Source: an uncultured Bacteriovoracaceae bacterium
GTDB lineage: Bacteria; Bdellovibrionota; Bacteriovoracia; Bacteriovoracales; Bacteriovoracaceae
Direction: 5' to 3'
NCBI GenBank assembly: GCA_964012805.1
Contig: CAXGUD010000048.1
Coordinates: forward strand, 1 to 26,008
Length of the DNA: 26,008 bases
The position numbers and the translations under genes are program-made. Below, one piece after another: positions 7,531 through 25,713 of the stretch (position 1 is its first letter; each line of letters opens with the position of its first letter). A model generated the notes under the pieces. That model was not told the origin of the DNA. It ran no database searches and saw only the letters and a program-made list of their open reading frames with translations.

Positions 7531-8005
7531 TTTTCACCCACTTATCACGAAGCAATCTTTCATTGGCCACTTTTTTCTGGAGTGTCATAACCCCCTCAAT
7601 CAAAGCCTCAGGACGAGGTGGACAACCTGGAACGTAAACATCCACCGGAATAACCTCATCGACGCCTTTAAGAACGTGATAGCCATGTTGCCAATAAGGT
7701 CCTCCCTTATTCGCACAAGAACCCATGGAAAGGACGTACTTTGGCTCAGCCATCTGCTCATAGAGTGTTTTGATCCTAGGAGCCATCTTAAGAGTGACTG
7801 TTCCAGCGACAATCATGAAATCGGCCCTACGGGGAGTCGCCATGAAAGCACCACAACCAAACCTTTCCAAGTCATACTTGGCAGCACCAGTTGCCATCAT
7901 TTCGATAGCACAACAAGCCAAACCAAAGGTCATAGGCCAGAGAGAGTTTTTCCTCCCCCAATTTAGGAAATCATCCATCTTTAACAGAACAACGCTGTCT
8001 TGCAT
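7523..8005 (-). CDS. nuoB: NADH-quinone oxidoreductase subunit B
   Basis: [39 protein letters not shown]; overlaps nuoC start by 8 nt. Confidence 0.95.
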
Positions 8006-8055
8006 TTTTTAGCTCCCAGAATTATAATACCCCCACACCACCATATTATGCCATA

Positions 8056-8084
8056 TTTTTACCTACGAGGCTATTTTAAGTCAA
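8056..8084 (-). promoter_or_regulatory. Candidate sigma70 promoter for nuoBCDI
   Basis: Minus strand reads TTGACT-N17-TAAAAA, about 50 nt upstream of the nuoB start. Confidence 0.4.
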
Positions 8085-8137
8085 TGAGGACAAAGCAAAA
8101 AGTGTAATGTCTAATACCTTTAGACGGTGATTTTGTC

Positions 8138-15360: not shown

Positions 15361-15454
15361 CCAATAACTTAAATTCTTTGAGGAAAGGTTTTCCTTATTA
15401 AAAAGGAGGTTTTTGCCCTTTTCATAAGCCTCTATCATCTAGACAAAAAAAGTT

Positions 15455-15462
15455 GCCGAATG
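15455..15462 (+). promoter_or_regulatory. Possible sigma28 -10 element upstream of flagellin
   Basis: GCCGAATG about 110 nt upstream of the flagellin ATG; no convincing TAAA -35 at 15-nt spacing. Confidence 0.3.
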
Positions 15463-15569: not shown

Positions 15570-16562
15570 ATGGGCTTTCGAATAAATACCAATGTTCCCT
15601 CGATAGCAGCACAAAGAAGTTTAAACCAAAATACAAATCAACAAACAAGTACATTTGCCAAACTTGCTTCAGGTACCAGGATTAATAAAGCTGCAGATGA
15701 TGCTGCAGGATTAGCAATGAGTGAAAAGTTAAAGGCCAGGATTAGAGGGACAAAACAAGCAGAAAGGAATGCAAATGATGGCATTTCTCTAATTCAAACA
15801 GCTGAAGGTGCACTTAGCGAAATTTCAAACATATTGATTAGATTAAGAGAACTTTCTGTGCAAGCATCATCAGATACAATTGGTGATAACGAACGTAAAT
15901 TTTCAAATCTAGAATACCAAAACTTAAAAGAAGAAATAGAAAGGATTTCTCAGGTAACAGAGTTTAACAATAAAAAGTTACTAAATGGAGAAGGGGATAA
16001 ATACGACTTTCAAATCGGGCTTTATAATGATGATTTTGAAGATAGAATAAAATACGATGCAATGTTTTTAAATTCAACTTTATCAAGCTTATTTGGTGGA
16101 GAAGATGCAATAAAAAAACAGATAGACTTAAGAAGTCAGCTAAGAGAAATAGAATATAGTGATGATTTTGATAATGAAATCGAAAGAGTTAAAGCAAGAG
16201 AAGCACTCCAAGCAAGTTATGTAAAGAGTCTTACTGAAGGGAATAACAACCGTGTCGCTGGATTAAATGTTATCACTAAGGAATCTGCCCAGCTCAGTTT
16301 AAAAAATCTCGATTCGGCAATACAAAAAGTTTCAGGACAGAGGGCAGAATTAGGTGCCCTTCAAAATAGACTCACTTCTGTCATTAATAACCTCCAGGTT
16401 AGTCACGAAAACTTAAGCGCCACAAATTCGAGAATAAGAGATACAGATTATGCAAATGAAGCTGCTAATGGAACGAGGCTTACCATTCTTCAAAACATGG
16501 GTACTTCTGTATTAAGTCAGGCGAACTCTAATCCTCAGCTAGCTTTAAAACTTATAGGTTAA
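15570..16562 (+). CDS. fliC: Flagellin
   Basis: MGFRINTNV, KLASGTRINKAADDAAGLA, NANDGISLIQTAEGAL, RAELGALQNRL, SRIRDTDYA, VLSQAN..PQ.AL.L; GGAGG RBS. Confidence 0.96.
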   Translation: MGFRINTNVPSIAAQRSLNQNTNQQTSTFAKLASGTRINKAADDAAGLAMSEKLKARIRGTKQAERNANDGISLIQTAEGALSEISNILIRLRELSVQASSDTIGDNERKFSNLEYQNLKEEIERISQVTEFNNKKLLNGEGDKYDFQIGLYNDDFEDRIKYDAMFLNSTLSSLFGGEDAIKKQIDLRSQLREIEYSDDFDNEIERVKAREALQASYVKSLTEGNNNRVAGLNVITKESAQLSLKNLDSAIQKVSGQRAELGALQNRLTSVINNLQVSHENLSATNSRIRDTDYANEAANGTRLTILQNMGTSVLSQANSNPQLALKLIG

Positions 16563-16573
16563 TAAGGAAATAA

Positions 16574-19500
16574 ATGAGCTTATTATCCAAGATAGTAAAA
16601 AAAGAGGTTGATCTTGAGGATTACAGAAGTTCCCCTCAAGGTCAAAGCATATTTAAAAAACTTGAGTCTAAAGTAAACTTAAGAGAACAGTTTTTAAAGA
16701 TAGATCCGTCCATTGAAATAAAAAAAGTTATAGACAGTGAAAAGATTTCTTATTTTGTGATGAGGAACAAAGATTATCACTTTTTAAAATTAGGTCCTAA
16801 AGAAAAGTTCATAGTCGATTTTTTGATGGAAGGAGCTACAATTGAAGACATCTCTTATGAATTCTTTATGGAGTATTCACAATTAGCTGACCAATACATA
16901 GAGCATTTTGTAAATGTTCTTTATAAAAATAATTTTCTAATAAAACCCTATAAAAATATATATGGGGACCTTAATTTGGCCATAAGAAGAGATAGAAAGG
17001 TTTCTTTATTTTCAAAGGTAATGCTGTTCCTAAGAAGAAAAGTATTAAAAAATATGGTTTATATAAGTTCGCTTCACAAATATATAGACTCTATTTATAA
17101 AAATGGTGGTAAATTCGTTTGTTCTAAAGGAGCAACCCTATTTTTTAATTTTTCCATTCTTTTATCTTTTTACGTTTTTTCGACATCTGTGAATTTTGGA
17201 AATATAGATATATTTAGAGTCAATGGCTCTATAACACTAGGTTTAATGGTATTATTCTTAATAAGGGCCATTCATACTTCTCTTCATGAGTTAGGTCACG
17301 CACTAAGTGTTGTTCATTTTAGAAGAAAGGTCATTAAAGGTGGATTAATTTCATTTTTTGGTATTCCATCATTTTTTGTAGACACAAATGATATCTGGAT
17401 GAGACCAAAAAAAGAACGAATAATGGTTTCTTTTGCAGGTCCATACGTCAACCTCATTTTAAATGCTTTTGCTATATTTTTACTTTCAATGAATGACAAC
17501 CCAATAATAGAAGGGTTTCTCTTAAGATTTATTGCTATTGGTGCTCTTAGCGTGTTTATTAATTTCAACCCTCTACTTACATTTGATGGTTACTTCATGC
17601 TAATAGATTATATTGGTTATCCAATGTTAAGAGATAAAGCTATTTCTTTTATAAAAAATTTTTTTACAAGAAAAGGCCATAAAAAAATAAAATCGATGCC
17701 AAGAAAAGAAATGCTCCTTTTATCAACCTATGGTTTCTCCTCTATTTTTTGGCTAATATTTTTTTTAGCATTTGTCTTAAACGTAATGGGATTAAGGGCA
17801 AAAGAGCTTTTGAATGAGTTAATGAACAGCCAATCTTATTTAATAAAAGGTTTTTCTTTTATTTTTATTTCTCTTTTTGTCCTCCCAATAATTATTTCAA
17901 TTCTTGCACTTATATATTTTAAATTAAGAGATATTTTTATTGATTTAAAAGAGAGGTATTGGAATCATTCAATTCGAAATAAAAGTATTATCCTTTCATC
18001 CTTAAATTTAATAATTAATATCCTAACATTTTTTAATTTTAATAATTTAAATTTTTCTATTATTTGCTTCTTATCGGGTTTTTTATTTTTTAAAATTCAG
18101 TATTTAAAAGAAAACAGTCATTTTTTCATCTTTCACTTTATTTATATTTTCTTACTTTCTTCCGCTTTAATCTTGGCTAAATCCATGATCCCAATTAATT
18201 TGATTTTTCTTCCTTACCTATTTATTTTATTCTTATTTGTTTACAAACAGAAAGATTATCCAATTTTTTTCTCTTATTTCTTTGTTTTAACACTATCATT
18301 TAATCTCTTTTTTATTCTTGACCATGGACTTAAACCCAAATTACTTGGTGGTTTATTTTTTTCAACCATTACATTTTATTACTTATGTTCATTTTTTTTA
18401 AAAATGTTGGACTTTAATTCGAAGTTCATGAAAGATGGTCATATAAAAGCCTCTGATTCACAAAAAGTAAAAATTGTGTTCGAAAATCATCTCCATATAG
18501 TTTATAAAATGATGGAGGAAAACTATGGTAAATTTCATGCTAAAAGCTTTATAAAAAGTTTAGATAAGAAATCTCCAGAAATAAGAATTTATTTTGAACC
18601 TTTAAGTGTTAAATATAGTGAGAAACTAAAAAGTATTCATAGTCTTTCTTCCAGTTTGAAAGAAACATTCTTACTTCTTAAAGAAATAAGCCATTACTAT
18701 TTTGGGCAAACTTTTTCTCAAAAAATATTTTTAAAAATTTTGGATGAGGAAAAATGGGTTTTTAGAGAAGTTTTTGAAGAATATGTCCTATCCAGAAACA
18801 AAAAGGGAGTTTTCGATTTCTCATTATTTGTAGAGAACCATATCCAGTTCTTATCAAAATTAGATTTATTCTCCACTTTTAATGAAAAAGACCTCAAGCT
18901 AATATTAACAAATTTAAAAAGTTACCAATTTAAAAATGGAGAGACTCTTACTAAAGAAAATGAAGATGGAGACCAAATGTTTATCCTTCTTGGAGGAAAT
19001 GTTTCTGTTTACAAATTTAGTGAAATAACAAAAAAAGACGAGAAGGTAGCCATACTGGGGCCAGGTGATATATTTGGAGAGAGAACTTTATTTCTTGGAG
19101 AGCCTAGAAGTGCAACAATAATAACTGAAGGAGAAGGTAATCTTCTCATCATGGCAAAAGATGAATTTAAAAAGCTCTTAAAAGTCTCCAGTCCATTTAA
19201 GGAAAAAATCCAAAAAATGGTCGATGAAAGCTTTAAGTTTTTTGACCTTCTTAAATCGGTCCCTTTATTTAAAGACGTTTCCGAAGAAAACCTAAAATTA
19301 TTGGCACCCAAGATTAAATTTGAAACCTTTGAAGTAAATGATTTTATTTTTAAAGAAGGAAATATAGGAAATTCATTTTATATCCTTAAAGAAGGTAAAG
19401 TAGAAATATTTACTGGAACTGATGACAATCAAACAAAAAATATTTTGGCAAATCTAGGTCCGGGGGAGTTTTTTGGTGAAATCGCCTTGTTTAGAGAAAT

Positions 19501-19660
19501 AAAGAGAACTGCTTCAGTGAAAGCCCTTAAAAAAAGCATCAGCCTAAGCATTGCAAAAGAAGATTTTAAGAGCGTTTTTTCGGAAAAAAAGGCTTTAGAA
19601 AGGGTTAGTTCAAGACGATTAAAAGAAATGAATTACTCGGTTAACAAAAAGGATAATTAA
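16574..19660 (+). CDS. M50 (site-2) intramembrane metalloprotease with N-terminal PqqD/RRE-like domain, extra TM segments and two C-terminal cNMP-binding domains
   Basis: HELGH at aa 238, AGPYVN, NFNPLLTFDGY at aa 330; many hydrophobic segments; phosphate-binding cassettes FGERTLFLGEPRSAT (aa 834) and FGEIALFREIKRTAS (aa 967). Confidence 0.85.
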   Translation: MSLLSKIVKKEVDLEDYRSSPQGQSIFKKLESKVNLREQFLKIDPSIEIKKVIDSEKISYFVMRNKDYHFLKLGPKEKFIVDFLMEGATIEDISYEFFMEYSQLADQYIEHFVNVLYKNNFLIKPYKNIYGDLNLAIRRDRKVSLFSKVMLFLRRKVLKNMVYISSLHKYIDSIYKNGGKFVCSKGATLFFNFSILLSFYVFSTSVNFGNIDIFRVNGSITLGLMVLFLIRAIHTSLHELGHALSVVHFRRKVIKGGLISFFGIPSFFVDTNDIWMRPKKERIMVSFAGPYVNLILNAFAIFLLSMNDNPIIEGFLLRFIAIGALSVFINFNPLLTFDGYFMLIDYIGYPMLRDKAISFIKNFFTRKGHKKIKSMPRKEMLLLSTYGFSSIFWLIFFLAFVLNVMGLRAKELLNELMNSQSYLIKGFSFIFISLFVLPIIISILALIYFKLRDIFIDLKERYWNHSIRNKSIILSSLNLIINILTFFNFNNLNFSIICFLSGFLFFKIQYLKENSHFFIFHFIYIFLLSSALILAKSMIPINLIFLPYLFILFLFVYKQKDYPIFFSYFFVLTLSFNLFFILDHGLKPKLLGGLFFSTITFYYLCSFFLKMLDFNSKFMKDGHIKASDSQKVKIVFENHLHIVYKMMEENYGKFHAKSFIKSLDKKSPEIRIYFEPLSVKYSEKLKSIHSLSSSLKETFLLLKEISHYYFGQTFSQKIFLKILDEEKWVFREVFEEYVLSRNKKGVFDFSLFVENHIQFLSKLDLFSTFNEKDLKLILTNLKSYQFKNGETLTKENEDGDQMFILLGGNVSVYKFSEITKKDEKVAILGPGDIFGERTLFLGEPRSATIITEGEGNLLIMAKDEFKKLLKVSSPFKEKIQKMVDESFKFFDLLKSVPLFKDVSEENLKLLAPKIKFETFEVNDFIFKEGNIGNSFYILKEGKVEIFTGTDDNQTKNILANLGPGEFFGEIALFREIKRTASVKALKKSISLSIAKEDFKSVFSEKKALERVSSRRLKEMNYSVNKKDN

Positions 19661-19669
19661 GGAAAAAAA

Positions 19670-19891
19670 ATGAATTGTGTTGAATGTGATAGACCTGCTC
19701 ACGGAACATGTAGGTTTTGTGGACGGGGATTATGTAAAGACCACTTTAATTCAGCAAATTTTATTGTCACCATAAGTAACAATCAAAGTAAGAATGAAGA
19801 AGGGCCAGAAGTTTTGGTTGTTAAAAATGTGCTAAAATGTAGTCATTGTGAACCTCTTGGAGAGCTAATTAGTTTAAATAAAAAGGATTAA
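19670..19891 (+). CDS. Small Cys/His zinc-finger protein (DUF2180-like)
   Basis: CxxC-x7-CxxC-x4-CxxH ... CxxC pattern; AAGGA RBS; 9 nt after the upstream stop. Confidence 0.65.
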   Translation: MNCVECDRPAHGTCRFCGRGLCKDHFNSANFIVTISNNQSKNEEGPEVLVVKNVLKCSHCEPLGELISLNKKD

Positions 19892-19901
19892 GGAGAAAAA
19901 A

Positions 19902-20150
19902 ATGGCCATGAAGGATGTAAAACTCATTTTGGATAAAGCCCACAAAGATGATGAGTTTAGGAAACTATTATTATCTAACCCAGATGAAGCACTTAAGGAC
20001 TTTGCCTTATCAGACAGAGAAAAAGAGAAGTTTCACGGAATGGGTCAGGAGCAATTGATGGCATTTAAAAGCCAGCTAGACAAGAGGTTTTCTAAAGATG
20101 GAAGCTCCGGCAGTGACGATGACTGGTGGGTAGAGTCTGTAACAGACTGA
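19902..20150 (+). CDS. NHLP-clan (Os1348/Franean1_4349-like) RiPP precursor-like peptide
   Basis: ILDKAHKDDEFRKLLLSNPDEALKDFALSDRE matches the nitrile-hydratase-like leader pattern (A..D..FR..LL..P..AL....L...E); LDKRFSK leader-end motif; AAGGAG RBS. Confidence 0.75.
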   Translation: MAMKDVKLILDKAHKDDEFRKLLLSNPDEALKDFALSDREKEKFHGMGQEQLMAFKSQLDKRFSKDGSSGSDDDWWVESVTD

Positions 20151-20173: not shown

Positions 20174-21211
20174 TTACCAACTAAAACTAGGAATTAGATA
20201 GTAGTTTCGTTCTTCGGTTGAGTCATTCCCTTGCAATTTATATACTTCCCAACGCATGCCACCTTCTATTTTTAAACTTTTAAATTTCATTCCAAAAAGT
20301 TTAAAATTAGTAAAATTTCTACCAAGAGTAAATTCTTGGAAAGTAGTTATTTTTCTTGGCCCCCTTAAACTTTCTTTATTGTTAGTTGGAATAATAGATC
20401 TATATTCCATAATTAGGTTTGCCATTAATGAAGAATCATTTTTTGAAGCCCAATCTCTTTTCAGATAGAGTGAGAGCCCATCATAAAAGACCTCATTTTT
20501 ATTTTTTAAATAGCCTAATTCGAGCGTCCAGCTTTTTTTCGTTTCCTTAGTTCTATTGTTTCCTTTAAATTTATAACTCACATTAAACCATTTATTCGTA
20601 TACTGATCCAATTTGACCAGGCGATCAGTGGCAAAGGAGAGGACAAGACCACTTAGAGAACTCCCTGATTGGGAGGGTCTCTTCCTTTTTCCTTTCTTTT
20701 TTTTCTTTGATTTGTTAACAACCTTAGAATCAGAAACGTAATAAGGCTCTAAATTTCCAAGAAAAAAAGAAAATTGATAAGGAACTTTATACTTTGTTCC
20801 TATAATCTCTACCATGTTCCAAACTTTATCTTTATCTATGTCAAACCTACTATAAATTCCATGTTCCCTTTTTTTCAGGTAGATTCCAAGGTTGGTGAAA
20901 GGATAGTAATCAGCTTGAAAAAGAAGAAATTTTGGACTAAAACTTTTCTTAAATTGTTCATAGTAAAAGTCCAACTCCTTTTTAAAATCATATTTTTTTT
21001 CTAATGACCGTTTTTTAGGTTTAACTTTTGAAAAATTCAAACTGGCGTTAAAATAAGTTTTGCCCACACTTGCACCGACAGTATACCTTAACTTTTTACT
21101 ACCAATTTTTGAACTCCATCCTTTCCTGTATAAATAAGCATTACTATTCAAAGCAAAAAATAGAGTAAATGCTATAAATTTAAGTTTAAAAATGAAATTC
21201 ATAATTTTCAT
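20174..21211 (-). CDS. Secreted hypothetical protein, possible outer-membrane beta-barrel
   Basis: Start MKIMNF (21211, AGGAGA upstream) gives a signal peptide ending NSNA; aromatic-rich alternating strands; C-terminal YYLIPSFSW resembles a beta-signal. Confidence 0.5.
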   Translation of the reverse strand: MKIMNFIFKLKFIAFTLFFALNSNAYLYRKGWSSKIGSKKLRYTVGASVGKTYFNASLNFSKVKPKKRSLEKKYDFKKELDFYYEQFKKSFSPKFLLFQADYYPFTNLGIYLKKREHGIYSRFDIDKDKVWNMVEIIGTKYKVPYQFSFFLGNLEPYYVSDSKVVNKSKKKKKGKRKRPSQSGSSLSGLVLSFATDRLVKLDQYTNKWFNVSYKFKGNNRTKETKKSWTLELGYLKNKNEVFYDGLSLYLKRDWASKNDSSLMANLIMEYRSIIPTNNKESLRGPRKITTFQEFTLGRNFTNFKLFGMKFKSLKIEGGMRWEVYKLQGNDSTEERNYYLIPSFSW

Positions 21212-24261: not shown

Positions 24262-25713
24262 ATGAAAAAAACTTTACTACCCATTTTAGCAATTGGACTA
24301 ATGAATCTTACCCCTGGTCAAAAAGCTCATGCTTTTTACGGAAAACAAGCTGAAAAAACCATTTTAAAATTTGATGGAGAACTTGTTGTCCCAAAAGGAC
24401 TAACTAAATCAGAGATTGAAAAGAAAATTCTAGAACAAACAGGGCATTTACTTGGAACTTTTCATTCAAAGAGCTTTATAAAGGAATTTGGGTCGGAAGG
24501 CGTTGTAGGAGAAGATAAAACGGTTTCTAATATTAAAGTTTATGCATCAAAAGATGACAAAAAGAAGGACTTTGTTACCTACACCTTTGAAAGTGAGGCC
24601 CTCTTTAATAAGAAGGCCTTCGGCAGAAAAAAAACAATCCAAGTTCCTATCAAACTCCCTTATTCTCCAGAAGAGATTTATGACTTTGGAATTGTAGGAA
24701 ATAAAAATGTATGTACAGACAACCACTATAATGGACCTGAAGACTTTTTTTACTTTTGGGATCCAGATAAAAAAGGATGTCCTTTAAAGGGAAATCAATA
24801 TGAGGTTTACAGGACAAAAGGAACTTTAAAGAAATTACCTAAAACAAAAAGAACCTTACCAAACTATACAAAACTTTTTGGTGATAATGGTAACGGTGAT
24901 ACAACAAGGATTGATCTTCTTTTCGGATTTGTAGATGATAAATCCCCAAAAAATCTTTCTCACTATCTAAAACAGACTATTAAATATTTAGATCCAGATT
25001 CTACATTAAAAGGAGTTGACGACACTATAAGTGGAGCTTATGAAATCTTTGATCATCTTGAACTAAAAGGGTTTGAGCTTGAGGAAAGAATTCTCTATGG
25101 AAGCATGAAAGATAAAGAAATTAAATCTTTTGAGCGTAAAGATATCAATATTGGAGATTTAATTTCTAGTGACAAAGGTGAAATTCCTGGTGAAAAAAGA
25201 ACCTACAGCAAAATGTTTCCTTCAGGAAAAGTAGTTCAAATTAATATTTTAATTGCAGATACAGATGCTGATGCTCATAAAAAAAATAAGAGTAACCTTT
25301 TCAAAGATGCTCTTAAAGACTCTTTGATGAATGCAGATATCATTGAATATGAAGGGCACTCAGGGTTAGGCGAGAATCTTAATCTGAAAGCGATGTACGG
25401 TAATGAAGAAATTTTTGATCCAAATAAATCACAAGTTATTTTTATTAACGGATGTCACTCTTACTCTTACTATAAAAATATGTTTTTTGAAAAAAAGGGT
25501 AATGAAGAAAACTTAGACCTCATTCTATCAGGATTAACAACAATAAGTTCAGATGGGCCCAATAACGTGAAAGCTTTTTTGAAGTATTTTTTGAATCCTG
25601 ATACGAAAAGGGAAGTTTCTTTCCAGGCGATTCTCAATAATATTGAAGATTCAAATGAGAAAGAAAATGGAAGTTACTTAACATCAGTTTATGGTGATAT
25701 ATTAACAAGATAA
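24262..25713 (+). CDS. Secreted hypothetical protein with C-terminal His/Cys dyad (clan CD peptidase-like)
   Basis: Signal peptide ending AHA; IIEYEGHSGLG (His366) and VIFINGCHSY (Cys398); GAGGA RBS. Confidence 0.55.
   Translation: MKKTLLPILAIGLMNLTPGQKAHAFYGKQAEKTILKFDGELVVPKGLTKSEIEKKILEQTGHLLGTFHSKSFIKEFGSEGVVGEDKTVSNIKVYASKDDKKKDFVTYTFESEALFNKKAFGRKKTIQVPIKLPYSPEEIYDFGIVGNKNVCTDNHYNGPEDFFYFWDPDKKGCPLKGNQYEVYRTKGTLKKLPKTKRTLPNYTKLFGDNGNGDTTRIDLLFGFVDDKSPKNLSHYLKQTIKYLDPDSTLKGVDDTISGAYEIFDHLELKGFELEERILYGSMKDKEIKSFERKDINIGDLISSDKGEIPGEKRTYSKMFPSGKVVQINILIADTDADAHKKNKSNLFKDALKDSLMNADIIEYEGHSGLGENLNLKAMYGNEEIFDPNKSQVIFINGCHSYSYYKNMFFEKKGNEENLDLILSGLTTISSDGPNNVKAFLKYFLNPDTKREVSFQAILNNIEDSNEKENGSYLTSVYGDILTR

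Follow-up and report, generated by a model that had tools for sequence, protein, structure and literature searches.

An Os1348-family precursor-like gene with a conserved acidic di-Trp tail beside an M50 protease bearing RRE-like and cNMP-binding domains in an uncultured Bacteriovoracaceae bacterium

The 82-aa protein encoded at positions 19902..20150 (+ strand) of the window, the whole stretch of 26,008 nucleotides analyzed here, belongs by its sequence to the Os1348 NHLP clan, and it ends in a short acidic tail carrying two adjacent Trp residues. The reading that we favor, at a probability of roughly 0.45, is that an M50 protease gated by cyclic nucleotides (cNMP) releases from the Os1348-family leader an unmodified acidic di-Trp signal of 11–17 residues. 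This reading draws on family membership, selection on the tail, the layout of the operon, intact zinc ligands, cNMP domains, and cyclases; the individual steps of release are modeled on gene and protein anatomy together with the MpaP and EpeP systems. Among the options listed in a first-pass annotation of this DNA, release of an unmodified peptide by the M50 protease is the best supported. The new part is a fixed 11-mer shared across lineages, with zinc-finger and barrel partners, and the whole is real and under selection.

An AGGAG ribosome-binding site at 19891-19895 precedes the start of the 82-aa open reading frame. The protein scores 47.6 bits against NF038399 (Os1348 family, NHLP clan; cut-off 40), with residues 4-64 aligned to the full profile (1-63), and the same model matches all 21 alignment members (E <= 0.01). 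Three further models stay below threshold: TIGR03793 (classical NHLP/proteusin) at 20.6 bits (cut-off 50.9), PF14407 (Frankia_peptide / Franean1_4349) at 20.9 bits (gathering threshold 48), and TIGR04509; a precomputed PF14407 label is present on many relatives. Of the two NHLP-clan models proposed as a check in the first-pass annotation, the Os1348 model is therefore over its cut-off and Franean1_4349 below. The best PDB sequence match is Os1348 itself (6lk7, E 2.3e-5); among named genomes, Halobacteriovoraceae/Bacteriovoracales MAGs are the closest. A structure model built with 21 homologues is all-helical (mean pLDDT 77.9), with residues 68-70 low and floppy; it aligns with 6lk7 at Z 4.8 and rmsd 3.3 over 57 residues, where 6lk7 is merely tied near the top of the structural matches.

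The leader (residues 1-65; 19902..20096, + strand) has five helices predicted from the alignment and structure model, with L[DE]xRxxK at its end. Here the motif is LDKRFSK at residues 59-65, which confirms the leader boundary first described. R62 is invariant in all 21 alignment rows, and a leader end of the form R-x-[STVNA]-[KRM] is common to 103 of 142 profile matches. Neither GG nor Cys is present anywhere in the protein. The missing GG is normal for this family: PflA and PosA, type members of the family, likewise lack it according to the accessible text of PMC12636437.

The Os1348-like helical fold is not always a leader: in Spirochaetes it also forms the end of response regulators and of a dehydrogenase subunit. 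Within Spirochaetota, 15 of 301 genomes have a profile match. At three loci that we read (L113:1908-3734, - strand; L113:8603-9268, - strand; L115:5197-5814, + strand), an Os1348/LigA-like helical domain closes response regulators and a formate-dehydrogenase-like subunit, with a conserved terminus of the W-L-x-x-R-L-x-x-E-x-W type behind it. ECOD places Frankia_peptide, Nif11, ComX, and LigA in a single fold family, as stated in the available part of PMC12353581.

Residues 66-82 (20097-20147) form the 17-aa acidic C-terminus DGSSGSDDDWWVESVTD, whose calculated unmodified mass is 1855.70 Da; our translation agrees with the Cys-free WW tail reported earlier. The conserved unit is 11 residues, however, not 17. 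It consists of a C-terminal 11-mer, DDDWWVESVTD (20115..20147, + strand), the probable active core to judge from relatives and codon comparison, preceded by a variable Gly/Ser/Asp spacer (20097..20114, + strand) of 6 residues here and 0-19 in relatives, delimited by tail lengths and the low pLDDT at residues 68-70. A profile search of 1.84 billion representatives returned the 142 matches mentioned above, 19 of which form a WW subfamily ending [WF]W[VITA]xS[VIL]x[DG]; the remaining 123 have unrelated tails. The last 11 residues, [DE]xx[WF]W[VIT]xS[VIL]xD-end, define the subfamily. Among 25 WW members the stretch after RxxK spans 11-30 residues and is exactly 11 in six. Because this length varies and the last 11 residues are fixed, we regard those 11 as the conserved unit, carried on an acidic Gly/Ser spacer.

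These last 11 residues are identical in all eight full-length relatives from the initial homologue search. Over five orthologues (10 non-independent pairs, with L024 and L059 found via the tail pattern), their codons show 54 synonymous and 0 non-synonymous pairwise differences, compared with 244 and 77 for the leader. When only the window, L006, and L007 are compared, none of them found by the tail pattern, the tail has 15 synonymous and 0 non-synonymous differences, and the leader has 28 non-synonymous ones. Paralogue pairs differ non-synonymously at 23-32 of 65 leader codons vs. 2-3 of 11 tail codons. Asp is the final residue in 20 of the 21 alignment rows, and W76 and S79 are invariant in all 21; since these rows were selected by tail, conservation in the tail columns is circular and was not used as proof. 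The tail is non-random and conserved under selection. Aligning homologous tails for the WW pair, as proposed in the first-pass annotation, thus finds the last 11 residues conserved with only synonymous change among orthologues, and the two findings that would have counted against its proposal, a missing NHLP match and an unconserved tail, are both contradicted.

Upstream lies a single-copy gene for an intramembrane M50-type metalloprotease of 1028 aa (16574..19660, + strand), identified by family matches and motifs. In this protein, HELGH occupies residues 238-242 and NPLLTFDG residues 332-339; there are some nine hydrophobic segments, and the C-terminus carries a pair of cNMP-binding domains (PF00027 x2). 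Its match to PF02163 is weak. Scores are 99.6 against NF041824 (cut-off 300) and 48 against NF058609 (cut-off 225). HELGH and D338 are invariant or intact across nine aligned homologues, and the zinc ligands are intact at the sequence level. Eleven class III cyclase matches occur in the genome, and these enzymes are a plausible cNMP input to the protease.

The RRE-like N-terminus of the M50 protein had been overlooked in the first-pass annotation. In a single-sequence model (pLDDT 68.5), residues about 48-118 (16715..16927, + strand) form three strands followed by helices. The top fold match is the lasso-peptide RRE B1 (6jx3), a middling one (Z 5.1, rmsd 3.3, 74 aligned), and the CteB and TbiB1 RREs are at ranks 5-6, among response-regulator winged helices. 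PqqD matches two of nine aligned homologues and not the M50 protein itself, whose RRE-like domain has no support from Pfam. Pairwise BLAST between two RRE regions gave no significance, and one tblastn segment covers part of the RRE plus the protease. We assign the modeled N-terminal domain as an RRE with moderate confidence. Complex predictions for M50 residues 28-425 with the peptide and zinc gave ipSAE values of 0.22, 0.41, and 0.26 against a mark of 0.32 and are used neither way.

Pairing of a leader with an M50 protease is not unique to the genus: G005, which belongs to a different family of the phylum, has a cNMP-RRE-M50 gene with an intact HEMAH, preceded by two Os1348-like genes that encode a leader only (L082:4705-6269 and 7931-8131, - strand). 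The two leader-only genes are near-identical, encode 66 aa, and have 2-residue tails. Contig C4 of G005 also carries a divergent polyprenyl-synthase-family gene (E 1e-10) that may act in trans.

Four genes, for flagellin (15570..16562, + strand), the M50 protease, a 73-aa Cys/His zinc-finger protein (19670..19891, + strand; DUF2180/C5HCH-like below cut-offs), and the peptide, follow one another with gaps of 9-11 bp, the flagellin gene lying 11 bp upstream of the M50 gene. Gene order in the run from flagellin is the same in L006 and L025. There is no terminator-like site at the flagellin/M50 junction, and no terminator-like fold after the peptide gene exceeds shuffles. From gaps and family matches, flagellin is likely the first gene of the peptide-gene transcript. 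At 15431-15460 of the window, upstream of flagellin, CCGA stands 15-16 bases after TCATC; the element, which we take to be sigma-28-like, is kept in the window and L006 with a drifting spacer, and the strict sigma-28 consensus pattern has no match. Convergent on the peptide gene is a 345-aa protein (20174..21211, - strand) with a signal-peptide-like N-terminus and a C-terminal Trp. Language-model features assign it to unnamed clusters at 0.94 and to porin families at 0.93, and we treat its prediction as an outer-membrane beta-barrel as a lead. The window also encodes, at 24262-25713(+), a secreted-looking 483-aa protein without a Pfam or NCBIfam match.

The term “orphan” in the first-pass annotation overstated the isolation of the peptide gene: the M50 protease itself has an RRE-like domain, the genome holds a second copy of the peptide gene, and the tail is accompanied by a zinc finger and a barrel-like gene at other loci too. 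The second copy (C28:19440-19685), 57% identical to the 82-aa protein, is located directly behind an aldehyde dehydrogenase gene and convergent on an amino-acid permease, far from the M50 protease; both copies are present in the same settings in all three genomes of the genus. The second copy and the aldehyde dehydrogenase form a two-gene unit in all three (L003:9938-11692(-)), for which no functional link was found. Outside the genus, no WW-tail members were detected by tail profile in 400 other genomes of the phylum, nor among the matches read from 301 Spirochaetota genomes; L008 was a false match. In metagenome contigs, the tail pattern gave 47 matches, comprising 6 family members (L017, L024, L025, L039 [partial], L046, and L059) and 41 chance or other-frame matches. 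Six matches were found in viral contigs, none with a leader; on one phage contig (L119:8001-8030(-)), a frame without a leader ends DWWVESITD-stop, probably a chance pattern match.

Three WW loci lie outside the genus, L017 and L039 (52% GC) and L046 (30% GC), and the patchy spread of WW members suggests lateral transfer. The order in L017 is zinc finger, WW peptide, barrel homologue, with the zinc-finger homologue (38% identity, E 2e-11) immediately before the peptide and the barrel-gene homologue (E 3e-15) immediately after the tail. L039 has lost the leader and kept the tail with a barrel-gene homologue directly behind it (E 2e-8). L017 and L039 are close relatives, both look decayed, and neither has an M50 homologue in the roughly 10 kb to either side of the WW locus. 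L046 has a different gene downstream of the WW peptide. The zinc finger was not found in the searched viral contigs, plasmids, 250 other genomes of the phylum, and 301 Spirochaetota genomes. RNA-library contigs (161-303 bases), which rank no expression level and show no strand, cover the peptide gene in four of eight marine runs from three studies; this evidence is weak because the runs were picked with the region and DNA carry-over is possible.

In the favored reading, the RRE of the adjacent M50 protease would bind the folded leader, as for daptide MpaP, and binding of cAMP or cGMP would license the protease. Cleavage would fall at the RxxK that closes the leader or immediately behind it, a site suggested by the end of family conservation and by the shortest members. 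The unmodified acidic WW peptide (11-17 residues) would pass through the inner membrane as it is cut, on the model put forward for EpeP, and then act as a signal, with exit or reception through the barrel-like neighbor. The second copy would use the same protease in trans, and co-transcription with flagellin would place expression in motile cells. In the accessible portions of the respective reports, MpaP, an RRE-fused site-2 protease, removes the daptide leader (bioRxiv 10.1101/2023.03.08.531785), and EpeP is proposed both to cut its peptide and to export it (PMC10885120). Against release, the M50 link for WW-tail peptides comes from one genus (three genomes and three metagenome contigs, not independent), no M50 gene is near the distant long-flank loci L017 and L039, the second copy is far from the protease, and no receptor gene was identified. 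A very acidic, hydrophilic tail is also an unusual substrate for an intramembrane protease. Furthermore, Os1348 has been detected full-length in cells and forms a stable dimer, as described in the available text of PMC7726476. The occurrence of the leader fold as a terminal domain in unrelated Spirochaete proteins counts against release as well.

No YcaO, lanthipeptide synthetase, radical SAM, or C39 gene is present in the window, judging from the ORF list, with 10 ORFs family-scanned and the rest assessed by eye; this agrees with the first-pass annotation. We extended the maturase search to the genome, which is 100% complete by markers (130 contigs). Its one YcaO, presumably an OsmC-like fusion, lies outside any peptide cluster. 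C39 (PF03412) has no match in the genome, and 7 of 14 control genomes were positive. The PqqD model, which also misses the M50 protein’s own RRE, has none either. LanC, LanB, and MvdD models likewise gave no genome match, and these are weak negatives because the models matched in no control genome; PF21068 (MvdC/D-type ATP-grasp ligase) matched in none of three genomes and in no control. The best RimK match stands alone, with no peptide gene beside it. Radical SAM proteins gave 19 genome matches, none of them on C48 (the window contig) or C28 (the second-copy contig): 14 have housekeeping-type families as best match and five have no match at E 1e-25, one of the five being a small SPASM/Twitch-like protein (C57). 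Elsewhere in the genome, a Rieske-like gene and a tandem pair of B12-binding-type radical SAM genes (G000:C2:33941-37722(-)) have no precursor nearby. PF00348 has just two genome matches, both strong and canonical-looking polyprenyl synthases, and a ComQ-like query from G077 has no match. In G077 itself, a divergent PF00348 gene, ComQ-like by our own reading, overlaps the start of an 82-aa Frankia_peptide-like gene (L085:7199-8469(+)); that genome has no RRE-M50 match. No maturase adjoins L017 or L039. We found no dedicated tailoring enzyme for the peptide in the genome, and the sequence searches lend little support to the distant maturases considered in the first-pass annotation.

These results bear directly on whether the peptide is instead a true RiPP whose tail is modified before M50 release by an enzyme encoded elsewhere, through Trp prenylation as in ComX/StheX, a radical SAM Trp cross-link, or ATP-grasp Ser/Thr-Asp esters. 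Precedents exist: StheX, a 69-aa protein whose WW lies close to the C-terminal end, undergoes Trp prenylation by StheQ (bioRxiv 10.64898/2026.08.29.745113, accessible part), and PosA and PflA of the same family are modified (PMC12636437, accessible part). The invariant W76 and S79 would suit such a role, as would C57 and the four other radical SAMs without family assignment. However, the polyprenyl synthases look canonical and the ComQ-like query went unmatched, the sole YcaO is outside the peptide clusters, 14 of 19 radical SAMs are housekeeping-type, and the MvdD, LanB, LanC, PqqD, and C39 models found nothing in the genome, three of them having matched no control. The lack of a maturase beside L017 or L039 and the position of the Trp pair, 7-8 residues from the end rather than 2-3, also argue against modification, which we consider quite unlikely.

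A somewhat doubtful alternative, close to the docking/inhibitor option of the first-pass annotation, is that the protein stays inside the cell, whole or clipped, as a regulatory subunit or tether, its helical part docked on the M50 protease or its RRE and the WW 11-mer, at the end of a flexible linker, docking onto the cNMP domains, the zinc finger, or some other partner. A constant end motif behind a spacer whose length varies suits tethered docking as well as it suits a released peptide, and the leader-only homologues of G005, with 1-2-residue tails, are paired with an intact M50. What is available of PMC7726476 and PMC12353581 also fits, the former describing Os1348 as a folded dimer seen full-length and the latter including regulatory subunits among LigA-like domains. 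Retention of the catalytic motifs by the protease speaks for cleavage instead, as does the retention, in all three genomes, of an unlinked second copy ending in the same tail, an arrangement common for substrates. The arrangement at L017 and L039, with a barrel-like gene after the tail in both, a zinc finger before it in L017, and no M50 nearby, raises another reading: the conserved unit would be zinc finger, WW peptide, and outer-membrane barrel, the tail would act on the barrel or zinc finger as a plug, a gate, or a signal for assembly, and the M50 protease would be a genus-specific neighbor. We find this quite improbable, since it draws on two distant loci only, mutually close and both damaged, since the downstream gene differs in L046, and since in the window the barrel gene runs on the other strand. 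The precursor would moreover need an exporter, because it has no signal peptide, and the M50 protease is the sole exporter candidate seen. 

Protease-mediated release of an unmodified signal could also be part of something broader, namely cNMP-gated signaling across lineages of diderms, built from enzyme-free RiPP parts (NHLP-clan leader, RRE, site-2 protease) with a shared 11-residue WW signal and a dedicated outer-membrane barrel, and coupled to flagellin in this genus. In that case, which we rate as unlikely, the signal would be coupled in the genus to flagellin expression and therefore to the motile hunting stage. Little is known of peptide signals in Gram-negative predators. Cassettes made of a leader and an RRE-protease without tailoring enzymes are skipped because RiPP genome mining keys on tailoring enzymes. 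The system is testable: the 11-residue core can be synthesized, the catalytic residues of the protease are clear, and a switch is to be expected from the cNMP domains. Should the tail prove to be a docking motif, NHLP-clan proteins would be shown to act as regulatory subunits.

In the literature searched, mostly open papers, we found no description of the WW tail or the cassette. The closest leaders are those of Os1348/PosA and PflA from Pseudomonas (NF038399, 6lk7), which share the leader family, an all-helical fold (here as modeled), the lack of a double-glycine site, and a conserved short C-terminal motif (available parts of PMC7726476 and PMC12636437). Their tail is QQQQARMD, in contrast to the acidic WW tail found here, and their clusters contain HEXXH oxygenase, MNIO-nitroreductase, and GNAT enzymes and no protease in the accessible text of PMC12636437, whereas the present gene has a protease beside it and no tailoring enzyme. 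Classical NHLP precursors (proteusin/TOMM, TIGR03793) are alike in distant homology of the first helices to nitrile hydratase alpha; the present protein is below their cut-off and has no GG, C39 exporter, Cys, or YcaO/LanM partner. ComX/ComQ and StheX/StheQ share a helical LigA-like leader, a Trp-bearing C-terminal tail, and a proposed signaling role, but here the window and genome contain no ComQ-like prenyltransferase and the WW is 7-8 residues from the end.

For the protease, the nearest relatives in design are daptide MpaP (NF041824) and epipeptide EpeP/YydH (NF058609), in which an RRE-like domain is likewise fused to an intramembrane HExxH/NPxxxxDG site-2 protease beside a short precursor gene. 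The present protein is far below both cut-offs, has two cNMP domains in addition, and is accompanied by a folded 65-aa leader; no oxidase, aminotransferase, methyltransferase, or epimerase is found here. Daptides have an invariant C-terminal Thr, in contrast to the C-terminal Asp of 20 of our 21 rows, and no MpaB/C/D/M enzymes are next to the peptide gene. The epipeptide cluster (EpeXEP) includes a radical SAM epimerase, whereas the peptide contigs here have none. The proposed processing step is like that of the daptide and epipeptide RRE-M50 proteases, but the system is a member of neither class.
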